Source: a virus (lineage: Duplodnaviria; Heunggongvirae; Uroviricota; Caudoviricetes). Taken from it: a stretch of DNA of 7,590 nt. A model generated the notes under the pieces. The model was not told the origin of the DNA. It made no database searches and saw nothing but the letters and a program-made list of their open reading frames with translations. The translations under genes were made by a program, and so were the position numbers. Location of the stretch: IMG/VR virus record IMGVR_UViG_2734482594_000001. The stretch is one strand, 5' to 3'. The stretch's first letter is position 1. The number at the start of each line of letters is the position of its first letter. Below are positions 2,879 to 7,183 of the stretch, one piece after another.

Positions 2879-3211
2879 ATGACGAGCAAAGAAACCTTTA
2901 CCCATTACCAGCCGCTGGGCAATAGTGACCCGGCTCATACCGCAACCGCGCCCGGCGGATTGAGTGCGAAAGCGCCTGCAATGACCCCGCTGATGCTGGA
3001 CACCTCCACCCGTAAGCTGGTTGCGTGGGATGGCACCACCGACGGTGCTGCCGTTGGCATTCTTGCGGTTGCTGCTGACCAGACCAGCACCACACTGACG
3101 TTCTACAAGTCCGGCACGTTCCGTTATGAGGATGTGCTCTGGCCGGAGGCTGCCAGCGACGAGACGAAAAAACGGACCGTGTTTGCCGGAACGGCAATCA
3201 GCATCGTTTAA
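2879..3211 (+). CDS. D: head decoration protein D (lambda gpD-like), 110 aa
   Basis: ATG at 2879 has SD-like AAGGG (2868-2872) 6 nt upstream; the ATG at 2873 abuts the SD with no spacer and is less likely. Stop TAA at 3209-3211. Translation [43 protein letters not shown]... matches recalled lambda gpD. Confidence 0.93.
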
Positions 3212-3228
3212 CTTTACCCTTCATCACT

Positions 3229-3266
3229 AAAGGCCGCCTGTGTGGCTTTTTTTACGGGATTTTTTT
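3229..3266 (+). promoter_or_regulatory. D-E intergenic element: weak hairpin (AAAGGCC...GGCTTTT) followed by two T7 runs immediately upstream of the E start
   Basis: Seen in sequence: 3229-3250 can pair as aaaggcc / ggctttt (3 G:C, 1 G:U and 3 A:U pairs) around an 8-nt loop. T runs at 3247-3253 and 3260-3266 flank ACGGGA (weak SD, 7 nt before the E ATG). Function is inferred only. Confidence 0.3.
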
Positions 3267-4292
3267 ATGTCGATGTACACAACCGCCCAGCTGCTGGCGG
3301 CAAATGAGCAGAAATTTAAGTTTGATCCGCTGTTTCTGCGTCTCTTTTTCCGTGAGAGCTATCCCTTCACTACGGAGAAAGTCTATCTCTCACAAATTCC
3401 GGGACTGGTAAACATGGCGCTGTACGTTTCGCCGATTGTTTCCGGTGAGGTTATCCGTTCCCGTGGCGGCTCCACCTCTGAATTTACGCCGGGATATGTC
3501 AAACCCAAGCATGAGGTGAATCCGCAGATGACCCTGCGTCGCCTGCCGGATGAAGATCCGCAGAATCTGGCGGACCCGGCTTACCGCCGCCGTCGCATCA
3601 TCATGCAGAACATGCGTGACGAAGAGCTGGCCATTGCTCAGGTCGAAGAGATGCAGGCAGTTTCTGCCGTGCTCAAGGGCAAATACACCATGACCGGTGA
3701 AGCCTTCGATCCGGTTGAGGTGGATATGGGCCGCAGTGCGGCGAACAACATCACACAGTCCGGCGTCACGGAGTGGAGCAAGCGTGACAAGTCCACGTAT
3801 GACCCGACCGACGATATCGAAGCCTACGCGCTGAACGCCAGCGGTGTGGTGAATATCATCGTGTTTGACCCGAAAGGCTGGGCGCTGTTCCGTTCCTTCA
3901 AAGCCGTCAAGGAGAAGCTGGATACCCGTCGCGGCTCTCATTCCGAGCTGGAGACAGCGGTAAAAGACCTGGGCAAAGCGGTGTCCTATAAGGGAATGTA
4001 TGGCGATGTGGCCATCGTCGTGTATTCCGGACAGTACGTGGAAAACGGCGTCAAAAAGAACTTCCTGCCGGACAACACGATGGTGCTGGGGAACACTCAG
4101 GCTCGCGGTCTGCGCACCTATGGCTGCATTCAGGATGCGGACGCACAGCGCGAAGGCATTAACGCTTCTGCCCGTTACCCGAAAAACTGGGTGACCACCG
4201 GCGATCCGGCGCGTGAGTTCACCATGATTCAGTCAGCACCGCTGATGCTGCTGGCTGATCCTGATGAGTTCGTGTCCGTTCAACTGGCGTAA
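3267..4292 (+). CDS. E: major capsid protein E (lambda gpE-like, HK97-fold), 341 aa
   Basis: ATG at 3267 to TAA at 4290-4292. Translation MSMYTTAQLLAANEQKFKFDPLFLRLFFRESYPFTTEKVYL... matches recalled lambda gpE. The six-frame ORF starts at GTG 3240, which lies inside the upstream hairpin and has no RBS, so is unlikely. A second ATG at 3273 is a possible alternative start. Confidence 0.93.
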   Translation: MSMYTTAQLLAANEQKFKFDPLFLRLFFRESYPFTTEKVYLSQIPGLVNMALYVSPIVSGEVIRSRGGSTSEFTPGYVKPKHEVNPQMTLRRLPDEDPQNLADPAYRRRRIIMQNMRDEELAIAQVEEMQAVSAVLKGKYTMTGEAFDPVEVDMGRSAANNITQSGVTEWSKRDKSTYDPTDDIEAYALNASGVVNIIVFDPKGWALFRSFKAVKEKLDTRRGSHSELETAVKDLGKAVSYKGMYGDVAIVVYSGQYVENGVKKNFLPDNTMVLGNTQARGLRTYGCIQDADAQREGINASARYPKNWVTTGDPAREFTMIQSAPLMLLADPDEFVSVQLA

Positions 4293-4294
4293 TC

Positions 4295-4320
4295 ATGGCC
4301 CTTCGGGGCCATTTTCTCTC
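4295..4320 (+). promoter_or_regulatory. perfect 7-bp GC-rich stem with UUCG tetraloop plus U/C-rich tail in the E-FI spacer (possible RNA-stability or partial terminator element)
   Basis: Seen in sequence: ATGGCCC (4295-4301), TTCG (4302-4305), GGGCCAT (4306-4312) are exact reverse complements, followed by TTTCTCTC (4313-4320). It sits 3 nt after the E stop and ends 14 nt before the FI start. Confidence 0.5.
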
Positions 4321-4333
4321 TGTGGAGGAGTTC

Positions 4334-4585
4334 ATGACGAAAGATGAACTGATTGCCCGTCTTCAGGAGCTGGGTGAGCAATTGAACCGCGATGTCAGTT
4401 TGACGGGAACGAAAGAAGAACTGGCGCTTCGTGTGGCAGAGCTGGAAGAAGAGCTTGATGACACGGATGAAACTGCCGGTCAGGACACCCCTCTCAGCCG
4501 GGAAAATGTGCTGACCGGGCATGAAAATGAGGTGGTATCAGCGCAGCCGGATACCGTGATTCAGGATACGGCTGAACTGGTCACG
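4334..4585 (+). CDS. FI: FI (lambda gpFI-like, DNA packaging / head assembly factor), N-terminal 84 codons only; 3' end lost in N-gap
   Basis: ATG at 4334 is preceded by GGAGG (4324-4328, 5 nt spacer). Translation MTKDELIARLQELGEQLNRDVSLTGTKEELALRVAELEEELDDTDETAGQDTPLSRENVLTGHENE... matches recalled lambda gpFI. The frame runs into the N-run at 4586. The ORF-track start at 4295 lies in the hairpin and lacks an RBS. Confidence 0.85.
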
Positions 4586-4666
4586 NNNNNNNNNNNNNNN
4601 NNNNNNNNNNNNNNNNNNNNNNNNNNNNNNNNNNNNNNNNNNNNNNNNNNNNNNNNNNNNNNNNNN
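4586..4666. other. run of 81 N (assembly gap or masked sequence) covering the FI 3' end, FI-FII junction and FII 5' end
   Basis: Seen in sequence: uninterrupted N from 4586 to 4666. By recall, the homologous lambda interval is about 240 nt, so the N-run length is probably not the true length. Confidence 0.95.
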
Positions 4667-4947: not shown

Positions 4948-5526
4948 ATGGCCATAAAAGGTCTTGAGCAGGCCGTTGAAAACCTCAGCCGTATCAGCAA
5001 AACGGCGGTGCCCGGTGCCGCCGCAATGGCCATTAACCGCGTTGCTTCATCCGCGATATCGCAGTCTGCGTCACAGGTTGCCCGTGAGACAAAGGTACGC
5101 CGGAAACTGGTAAAGGAAAGGGCCAGGCTGAAAAGGGCCACGGTCAAAAATCCGCAGGCCAGAATCAAAGTTAACCGGGGGGATTTGCCCGTAATCAAGC
5201 TGGGTAATGCGCGGGTTGTCCTGTCCCGCCGCAGGCGTCATAAAAAGGGGCAGCGTTCATCCCTGAAAGGTGGCGGCAGCGTGCTTGTGGTGGGTAACCG
5301 TCGTATTCCCGGCGCGTTTATTCAGCAACTGAAAAACGGCCGGTGGCATGTTATGCAGCGTGTGGCCGGGAAAAACCGTTACCCCATTGATGTGGTGAAA
5401 ATCCCGATGGCGGTGCCGCTTACCACGGCGTTTAAACAGAATATTGAACGGATACGGCGTGAACGTCTTCCGAAAGAGCTGGGCTATGCGCTGCAGCATC
5501 AACTGAGGATGGTAATAAAGCGATGA
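4948..5526 (+). CDS. Z: tail completion protein Z (lambda gpZ-like), 192 aa
   Basis: ATG at 4948 is preceded by AGGGGG (4938-4943). Stop TGA at 5524-5526. Translation MAIKGLEQAVENLSRISKTAVPGAAAMAINRVASS... matches recalled lambda gpZ. Confidence 0.92.
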   Translation: MAIKGLEQAVENLSRISKTAVPGAAAMAINRVASSAISQSASQVARETKVRRKLVKERARLKRATVKNPQARIKVNRGDLPVIKLGNARVVLSRRRRHKKGQRSSLKGGGSVLVVGNRRIPGAFIQQLKNGRWHVMQRVAGKNRYPIDVVKIPMAVPLTTAFKQNIERIRRERLPKELGYALQHQLRMVIKR

Positions 5527-5925: not shown

Positions 5926-6745
5926 ATGCCTGTACCAAATCCTGTAATGCCGGTGAAAGGTGCCGGGACCACCCTGTGGGTTTATAAGGGNNNNNNNNNN
6001 NNNNNNNNNNNNNNNNNNNNNNNNNNNNNNNNNNNNNNNNNNNNNNNNNNNNNNNNNNNNNNNNNNNNNNNNNNNNNNNNNNNNNNNNNNNCCGCTTTCA
6101 GACGTTGACTGGTCGCGTCTGGCAAAAGTTAAAGACCTGACGCCCGGCGAACTGACCGCTGAGTCCTATGACGACAGCTATCTCGATGATGAAGATGCAG
6201 ACTGGACTGCGACCGGGCAGGGGCAGAAATCTGCCGGAGATACCAGCTTCACGCTGGCGTGGATGCCCGGAGAGCAGGGGCAGCAGGCGCTGCTGGCGTG
6301 GTTTAATGAAGGTGATACCCGTGCCTATAAAATCCGCTTCCCGAACGGCACGGTCGATGTGTTCCGTGGCTGGGTCAGCAGTATCGGTAAGGCGGTGACG
6401 GCGAAGGAGGTGATTACCCGCACGGTGAAGGTCACCAATGTGGGACGTCCGTCGATGGCAGAAGATCGCAGCACGGTGACGGCGACGACCGGCATGACGG
6501 TGACACCCGCCAGTGCTTCCGTAGTGAAAGGGCAGAGCACCACGCTGACCGTGGCATTCCAGCCGGATGGCGCAACCGACAAGAGCTTCCGTGCGGTGTC
6601 TGCGGATAAAACAAAAGCCACCGTGTCGGTCAGTGGTATGACCATCACCGTGAAAGGTGTTGCTGCAGGCAAGGTCAACATTCCGGTCGTATCTGGTAAT
6701 GGTGAGTTTGCTGCGGTTGCAGAAATCAACGTCACCGCCAGTTAA
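5926..6745 (+). CDS. V: major tail tube protein V (lambda gpV-like) with C-terminal Ig-like (Big_2-type) domain; interrupted by N-gap, apparent frame change across the gap
   Basis: ATG at 5926 is preceded by GAGGA (5917-5921). N-terminal part [22 protein letters not shown] runs in frame 1 up to the gap. After the gap the frame-2 segment [28 protein letters not shown]...[16 protein letters not shown] runs to TAA at 6743-6745. Both parts match recalled lambda gpV. The ORF track splits it into 5896..6108 and 5960..6745 because of the Ns. Confidence 0.88.
5991..6091. other. run of 101 N (assembly gap or masked sequence) inside the 5' region of V
   Basis: Seen in sequence: uninterrupted N from 5991 to 6091. 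The flanking V segments are in different frames (1, then 2). By recall, lambda has only about 22 nt (about 7 codons) between the flanking residues. Confidence 0.95.
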
Positions 6746-6760
6746 TCCGGAGAGTCAGCG

Positions 6761-7183
6761 ATGTTCCTGAAAACCGAATCATTTGAACATAACGGTGTGA
6801 CCGTCACGCTTTCTGAACTGTCAGCCCTGCAGCGTATTGAGCATCTCGACCTGATGAAACGGCAGGCAGAACAGGCGGAGTCAGACAGCAACCGGAAGTT
6901 TACTGTGGAAGACGCCATCAGAACCGGCGCTTTTGTGGTTGCGATGTCCCTGTGGCATAACCATCCGAAGAAGACGCAGATGCCGTCCATGAATGAAGCC
7001 GTTAAACAGATTGAGCAGGAAGTGCTTACCACCTGGCCCACAGAGGCAATTTCTCATGCTGAAAACGTGGTGTACCGGCTGTCCGGTATGTATGAGTTTG
7101 TGGTGAATGATGCTCCTGAACAGGCAGAGGACGCCGGGCCTGCAGAGCCTGTTTCTGCGGGAAAGTGTTCGACGGTGAGCTGA
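6761..7183 (+). CDS. G: tail assembly chaperone G (lambda gpG-like), 140 aa
   Basis: ATG at 6761 is preceded by GGAGAG (6748-6753). Stop TGA at 7181-7183. Translation MFLKTESFEHNGVTVTLSELSALQRIEHLDLMKRQAEQAESD... matches recalled lambda gpG. The acidic C-terminal region contains the slippery heptamer. Confidence 0.92.
   Translation: MFLKTESFEHNGVTVTLSELSALQRIEHLDLMKRQAEQAESDSNRKFTVEDAIRTGAFVVAMSLWHNHPKKTQMPSMNEAVKQIEQEVLTTWPTEAISHAENVVYRLSGMYEFVVNDAPEQAEDAGPAEPVSAGKCSTVS

Follow-up and report, generated by a model that had tools for sequence, protein, structure and literature searches.

Immediately downstream of the major capsid gene E, the DNA analysed here carries a short GC-rich hairpin, and a hairpin is kept at this position in all of the diverged relatives that we compared, including those in which the sequence of the stem has changed. 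We propose that this E-FI hairpin acts as a 3' protective stem-loop, which would stabilise the capsid mRNA once the antiterminated late transcript has been processed. This reading is tentative, and we give it a probability of roughly 45%. The hairpin itself has long been sequenced in lambda and is annotated in N15 and HK225. What is new is the comparative evidence: the hairpin is kept as its stem changes, the T-rich tail that follows it is dispensable, and a conserved partner hairpin lies upstream of E.

Layout and fold of the E-FI junction

The window, by which we mean the whole stretch of 7,590 nt that was analysed, is a lambda-type head/tail module. It shows 97.6% identity to positions 2869-10540 of lambda (reference J02459), and many lambda-like phages and prophages match it too. 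The features referred to below, in window coordinates, are as follows.

2869: end of gene C
2879-3211: gene D
3229-3250 (+): companion terminator-like hairpin AAAGGCCGC-CTGT-GTGGCTTT in the D-E gap; its T run continues to 3253 and is followed by the U-rich E leader
3267-4292 (+): E, the major capsid gene (lambda E is 6135-7160, an offset of 2868)
4290-4292 (+): E stop codon TAA
4295-4312 (+): E-FI stem-loop ATGGCCC-TTCG-GGGCCAT, a perfect 7-bp stem, orthologue of lambda 7163-7180
4295-4301, 4302-4305 and 4306-4312 (+): its 5' arm ATGGCCC, loop TTCG and 3' arm GGGCCAT
4313-4320 (+): post-stem sequence TTTCTCTC
4313-4323 (+): pyrimidine-rich tail TTTCTCTCTGT, a possible weak terminator U-tract and/or CU partner of the FI Shine-Dalgarno
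between 4320 and the FI ATG at 4334 (+): TGTGGAGGAGTTC
4324-4330 (+): FI Shine-Dalgarno GGAGGAG, predicted to pair with 4313-4319; not clearly conserved
4329-4350 (+): second perfect 7-bp hairpin, AGTTCAT-GACGAAAG-ATGAACT, which encloses the FI start codon
4334-4336 (+): FI start ATG
4948-5526: gene Z
5523 and 6761: starts of U and G, respectively

Among the gene ends that can be placed, only two intergenic gaps exceed 20 nt, D-E and E-FI. Each contains a hairpin, and the two hairpins follow the genes of the two most abundant head proteins. The window also holds two runs of N, at 4586-4666 and 5991-6091, neither of which keeps its true length; relative to lambda, the window is ~161 nt shorter from the FI start to Z and ~79 nt longer across the second run. 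Because of these runs, neither the 3' part of FI nor the 5' end of FII can be read in the window.

From the E stop to FI, the junction reads TAA-TC-ATGGCCC-TTCG-GGGCCAT-TTTCTCTC-TGTGGAGGAGTTC-ATG. The first-pass annotation had described an exact inverted repeat with a UUCG loop after E, and the sequence is as it claimed, with small corrections to the spacing: the gap to the E stop is 2 nt (TC) rather than 3 nt, and 13 nt rather than 14 nt separate 4320 from the FI ATG. RNA folding, which it had suggested as a check, returned the hairpin in the minimum free energy (MFE) and centroid structures alike. In isolation the hairpin has a predicted energy of -12.3 kcal/mol, with five G-C pairs among its 7 bp and a 4-nt loop. 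This loop is a cUUCGg tetraloop, C(UUCG)G at 4301-4306, closed by a C-G pair. The hairpins of the window and of lambda are identical (18/18 nt), and the J02459 record carries no feature at this site. The corresponding element is annotated in N15 as a stem_loop at 7053-7073 ('putative rho-indep. transcription terminator') and in HK225 at 7009-7028 ('rho-independent terminator').

Judged by the window sequence alone, the E-FI hairpin is not statistically unusual, being no more than chance would provide. Perfect 7-bp inverted repeats with loops of 3-8 nt occur four times in the window, compared with 3.4 +/- 2.0 in dinucleotide shuffles, and the 61-nt fold around the hairpin has a z-score of -0.62. 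A terminator-pattern scan of the window found eight sites where 6.2 were expected. In a sliding MFE analysis, ~2% of same-strand 30-nt windows fold as stably or better, and the hairpin is surpassed in predicted strength by several helices in coding regions. A search with Rfam covariance models gave no match at E <= 1 in 4250-4400 and only two weak chance hits, near 2300. Since these tests within the window are unremarkable, the case for the hairpin rests on its position and on comparison. Another terminator-like hairpin, GAACCCGC-CTATGC-GCGGGTTT followed by TCTTTTG, lies inside the gene C coding sequence at 1616-1637; its d-score, by the uncalibrated formula used below for the tails, is ~ -4.

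Conservation of the hairpin and variation of its tail

To compare the junction across relatives, we used a profile search with one genome per species, which yielded 17 representative prophage loci whose capsid homologues are 59-90% identical. A scan of viral contigs with the E protein gave loci that are 99-100% identical; these are unfit for covariation and were used for polymorphism.

A GC-rich hairpin is present 2-29 nt past the capsid stop in all 17 diverged loci. The stem starts 2-10 nt after the stop in most relatives and 17-29 nt after it in L119, L125 and L140, and in 15 of the 17 loci the post-stop block falls within the most stable 1-16% of blocks. The most distant loci (L119, L120, L121/L123, L125 and L140) have stems that are unrelated in sequence: L120 has CATGCCCC/GGGGCATG, L121 has GCGGGAGC/GCUCCCGU, and L125 has an 11-bp stem. 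Within the family that shares GGCCC, the two outer pairs covary, one changing from U-A to C-G via U.G and the other occurring as A-U, G.U and G-C. The covariation score of this family was matched by only 1 of 500 shuffles, and 96% of the cells of its alignment pair, compared with 34-57% when the register is slid. At the equivalent site N15, HK225 and phi80 have GUGGCCC-(AUUC/UGUC)-GGGCCAC. The loops found among relatives are AUUC, UGUC, UGUU, UUUC, UCCG, UGCG, UUCU and UUAG; thus, UUCG is common but not required.

Closely related loci give the same picture at a finer scale. The core TGGCCC-N4-GGGCCA is unchanged in ~100 lambda-type loci, whose E is 97-100% identical; their outer pair is A-U or G.U, and the loop is UUCU in one locus and UUAG in another. 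Among 36 distinct lambda-type 160-mers, there are 0.5 minor alleles per position in the hairpin compared with ~2.1 in the remaining intergenic region; 13 of the 14 stem positions are invariant, and eight of the nine hairpin changes keep pairing, the ninth being in the loop. Taken together, a hairpin that is kept after the capsid stop while the sequence of its stem changes bears the signature of a selected structure. A stable structure just past E that is conserved among orthologous loci is also what is expected of a 3' protective stem-loop.

The junction is widespread: window positions 4255-4345 are found at >=90% identity in 3,178 of 5,426 complete E. coli genomes, with at most five copies per genome. 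Lambda capsid DNA at 95-100% identity was also present on short, low-coverage contigs (L089-L104, L112, L124, L126-L132, L135, L138 and L139) from assemblies labelled Chromatium, Paenibacillus, Bradyrhizobium, Shewanella, Pseudomonas, Akkermansia, Enterococcus and others, and in a 'Bacillus thuringiensis' protein record (P0001). Such stray capsid DNA is almost certainly contamination from lambda controls or ladders.

Given the window statistics, one could ask whether the hairpin has a function of its own at all; it might be a palindrome that arose by chance, or might matter at the DNA level, for instance as a target for recombination or transposition. Besides the unremarkable inverted-repeat count and fold z-score, this reading can draw on the insertion of IS4 at the palindrome. 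However, the comparative data disfavour it, since the position is conserved with unrelated stems across capsid genes of 59-90% identity, pairs change in a compensatory way, and the hairpin varies less than the adjacent non-coding bases. We therefore regard a lack of function as very improbable.

In L141 (PV340577.1, PhiR70_1; 757-790 and 2190-2225) an IS4 element (InsG) interrupts the E-FI hairpin in the orientation of the late genes and is flanked by a target duplication of 12 bp, GGCCCTTCGGGG. The IS4-hairpin junction is found at 98-100% identity and full length in five complete E. coli genomes (H91-H95). Nine genomes match at least 80% of the IS4-junction query, and three of those listed represent other IS4 sites. 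The E-FI palindrome thus appears to be an IS4 target. PhiR70_1 is uninformative as a natural knock-out of the hairpin, because IS4 brings its own terminator-like hairpin ~65 nt past the E stop and leaves a 5-bp version of the E-FI hairpin before FI.

The tail is much less constant than the stem. At least four common versions occur in lambda-type loci (TTGTTTCTCT, TTGTTTTTCT, TTTTCTCTCT and TTGTCTCTCT). Of 21 representatives, 19 have three to seven T among the first 8 tail nt; N15 and phi80 have a poor tail (CUUUCUGG), and L125 has none. The U-tract of the window, UUUUCUCU, contains 5-6 U in 8 when the closing U is counted. To score the tails we used a terminator d-score whose formula (d'Aubenton-Carafa 1990) is uncalibrated with modern energies. 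With that qualification, the score is positive for the window (~ +8 to +20), lambda (+10), L109, L116, L118, L121 and L140, and negative for the TTGTCTCTCT variant (~ -2), N15 and phi80 (~ -12), L125 (-32) and L123. Hairpins are kept even in loci whose T-tract is poor or missing, so the stem rather than terminator competence is the invariant part.

Candidate roles of the hairpin

The first-pass annotation had offered two roles, a 3' mRNA barrier and a partial terminator. A terminator-like structure with a pyrimidine- and U-rich tail is indeed present, and the same roles appear in annotations and in the literature, so both proposals were sensible; the role itself is still a candidate one. On the plus strand, the stem and loop fall within the range of intrinsic terminators (a GC-rich stem of ~5-14 bp and a loop of 3-8 nt). 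The site does not end a transcription unit, as the co-oriented genes FI, FII, Z, U, V and G follow it. A function on the minus strand was rejected because the reverse complement has no T tail and is followed by GATTACGCC.

In lambda, Q antiterminates late transcription, and this bears on both of the transcriptional readings. According to the first, the hairpin would be a fail-safe intrinsic terminator that stops polymerase lacking Q, arising from leak-through at tR' or from spurious internal starts in the lysogen or in early infection, and that Q-modified polymerase ignores. The pattern scan that classes the hairpin as terminator-like, the rho-independent terminators annotated in N15 and HK225, the T-enriched tails of most relatives and the positive d-scores (uncalibrated formula) of several of them all fit such a role, which has been proposed for intra-operon terminators in a paper on phage L (PMC8022706). 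The D-E hairpin, with its canonical T7 tail, fits as well. Yet this explanation gives no reason why sites should lie after D and E rather than early in an operon of more than 20 kb. In addition, N15 and phi80 have a poor tail and L125 has none, and tails differ even between near-identical lambda-type phages. A coupled ribosome would also impede folding of the hairpin, since only 2 nt lie between the stop codon and the stem. We consider the fail-safe role unlikely.

The second transcriptional reading is a leaky attenuator in lytic growth: some late transcripts would end at the hairpin, leaving less mRNA from FI onward, as at T-phi of T7. In its favour, phages balance expression by inefficient terminators (PMC9163698), and partial termination is among the possibilities raised for phage L (PMC8022706). 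However, lambdoid late transcription is antiterminated, tail quality varies, and downstream tail genes such as V are needed in large amounts. The D-E hairpin presents a further difficulty. A hairpin is predicted upstream of the capsid start in 17/17 of the diverged relatives, mostly as GCCGC-N4-GCGGC plus T7 with a variable loop, and with a different stem in L116/L134, L140, L121, L123 and L125. This element is as conserved as the E-FI hairpin and has a T7 tail in most relatives, and as an attenuator directly upstream of E it would be counter-productive. A terminator-like hairpin upstream of E, the gene needed most, thus argues against attenuation of late transcription. Finally, in PhiR70_1 the E-FI gap is interrupted by the 1.4-kb IS4, which brings a terminator-like hairpin of its own, and this phage was nevertheless deposited as a complete genome (host E. 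coli C). Attenuation at the E-FI hairpin is, in our estimate, improbable.

The start of FI offers a different route to low FI expression. The Shine-Dalgarno is predicted to pair with the CU tract (seven pairs in the MFE structure and six in the centroid, three of them G-U), and the start codon lies within the second hairpin. Position 4331 in that hairpin is polymorphic, with both alleles common: T, as in the window, gives a perfect stem, and C, as in lambda, gives an A.C mismatch. The predicted energy needed to open the start region is 12.2-12.4 kcal/mol for FI, the highest of nine gene starts, and 3.3-3.8 kcal/mol for E, among the lowest, although D also scores poorly by this measure and is abundant. 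The 85-nt junction folds as three hairpins closed by a long-range helix (z = -2.4). Because the most structured start region of the nine is that of FI, low FI can be explained by translation, with no need for the E-FI hairpin.

These structures suggest a translational insulator, in which the hairpin, the CU tract and the start-codon hairpin together would stop the very heavy flow of ribosomes that end at the E stop from sliding on and re-initiating at FI, 41 nt downstream, and would help to keep the FI ribosome binding site closed. The structured FI start and the junction fold are in line with this, as is the position of the stem 2-10 nt past the stop in most relatives. In N15-type sequences the stem can be lengthened by pairing between the FI Shine-Dalgarno and a UUCCA that precedes the hairpin, and protective structures may also block initiation of flanking genes (Dar and Sorek, PMC5927463). 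On the other hand, the pairings that sequester the Shine-Dalgarno are weak and lineage-dependent, the start-codon hairpin is imperfect in lambda, and the hairpin starts as far as 17-29 nt from the stop in three of the relatives named above. Experimental support was not found in the literature searched, and the odds of an insulator role seem low to us.

The hairpin had also been put forward in the first-pass annotation as an explanation of the drop from E to FI. The predictions and comparisons made here do not support this: the FI start is structured, a similar hairpin lies upstream of E, the operon is antiterminated, and the U-tract is the least conserved part. Lambda late protein ratios are reportedly set by translation initiation and not by mRNA level (Sampson, Hendrix, Huang and Casjens, PNAS 1988). 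Translation initiation probably comes first in setting the E:FI protein ratio, with any effect of the hairpin secondary to it.

The ATG at 4295, in the left arm of the hairpin, was present on the plus strand as described. It had been called spurious, yet it shares the reading frame of FI, no stop codon occurs in the 39 nt up to the FI ATG at 4334, and it lies 2 nt past the E stop. In N15 and phi80 a GTG at this position is likewise in frame, and the phi80 record starts the FI homologue there; by eye, the frame of the arm start codon with FI is not conserved in L109, L111 and L116. More speculatively, ribosomes that end at UAA 4290-4292 might re-initiate at AUG 4295 and produce an FI that is 13 residues longer.

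We return to the 3' protective stem-loop. Since the lambdoid late operon is antiterminated, a post-transcriptional role is the one that remains available in lytic growth. In our proposal, a stem-loop would have been selected for the 3' end of the E cistron within the long Q-antiterminated late transcript. The antiterminated polymerase would read through, and the hairpin would then form in free RNA. E would be dense with ribosomes, and the poorly translated FI segment would be open to endonucleolytic cleavage, presumably by RNase E. PNPase and RNase II would trim the product 3'-to-5' until they stalled at the base of the hairpin, and the E or D-E mRNA that is left would outlive the downstream message. 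We infer the processing, the exonuclease stalling and the gain in half-life by analogy with the bacterial operons described below. Predicted initiation, good for E and poor for FI, fits the model of Dar and Sorek, as far as a prediction can.

Several points stand against the protective role. A T-enriched tail is kept in most relatives, and an exonuclease barrier does not need one. An energy of -12 kcal/mol is not exceptional among the predicted local structures of the window. Furthermore, the 5' arm lies 2 nt past the E stop, where a terminating ribosome would cover it, so that the hairpin would be melted repeatedly. We found no transcript 3'-end, half-life or mutational data for the E-FI site in the full-text literature searched, which includes few older subscription papers, and a lambda microarray paper gives no E-versus-FI information.

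The lambda late operon is the textbook case of a single transcript with a very wide range of protein abundance, which is credited to translation initiation. Should the hairpins flanking E stabilise the capsid message, decay of the mRNA would add a second tier to the control of lambda late proteins, and the lambdoid 'intra-operon terminators of unknown role' would gain a function. A broader and more doubtful extension is that the D-E and E-FI hairpins together form a processing cassette that carves out a long-lived capsid mRNA, so that programmed decay would add to late stoichiometry, in an arrangement that recurs across E-family capsid modules, which ~59% of complete E. coli genomes carry. We think this rather unlikely. 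On the practical side, the element belongs to a module carried by most E. coli genomes and by lambda vectors, and it may thus influence how capsid is expressed in display and packaging systems.

Comparison with known systems

The lambda E-FI hairpin (7163-7180) is the same element at the same position; its tail is TTGTTTCTCT, compared with TTTTCTCTCT in the window. The N15-type copies share the position after the capsid stop and differ from the window in the outer pair, which is G-C, in their loops and in their poorer T tract.

Lambdoid late operons are antiterminated, and a likewise predicted terminator lies just past the capsid-assembly genes in the single-promoter, antiterminated late operon of the P22-like phage L (PMC8022706). 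The capsid gene family of phage L is unrelated to E, and we liken the two by position. The authors of that study describe the roles of intra-operon terminators as unknown (PMC8022706).

Two other identities were tried and set aside. The available part of a lambda RIL-seq report lists three Hfq-bound lambda sRNAs (PreS/LPR1, LPR2 and 6S RNA) and places none of them at the E-FI junction; an Hfq-dependent sRNA from the 3' end of E was, as far as this part of the source goes, rejected as unsupported. Identity with a REP/BIME element was rejected on sequence, by comparison with the REP consensus.

In T7, T-phi is likewise a stem-loop directly after the structural gene with the highest expression (the major capsid gene 10), where it is partly read through and RNA is less abundant downstream. 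T-phi stops T7 RNA polymerase, as has been experimentally established, whereas the E-FI element lies in an antiterminated operon of the host polymerase and is putative.

The likeness on which the protective role is modelled comes from E. coli operons whose parts decay at different rates. The malE-malF REP, papBA and menBCE have stable, conserved 3' hairpins at the edge of the more abundant and more translated cistron (Dar and Sorek 2018, PMC5927463). Ribosome density is low in the downstream cistron, and papA, which encodes a major structural subunit, has a hairpin on its 5' side and a terminator hairpin on its 3' side (PMC5927463). In the model of Dar and Sorek, gene A, with high ribosome density, keeps a 3' structure and gene B is cleaved, and the structures are conserved between species (PMC5927463). 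Most of their structures lie within the downstream coding sequence, whereas the E-FI hairpin is intergenic and has no sequence similarity to REP. If the analogy is correct, the capsid cistron would have a protective structure on either side, the D-E and the E-FI hairpin, in the manner of malE-malF and papBA.
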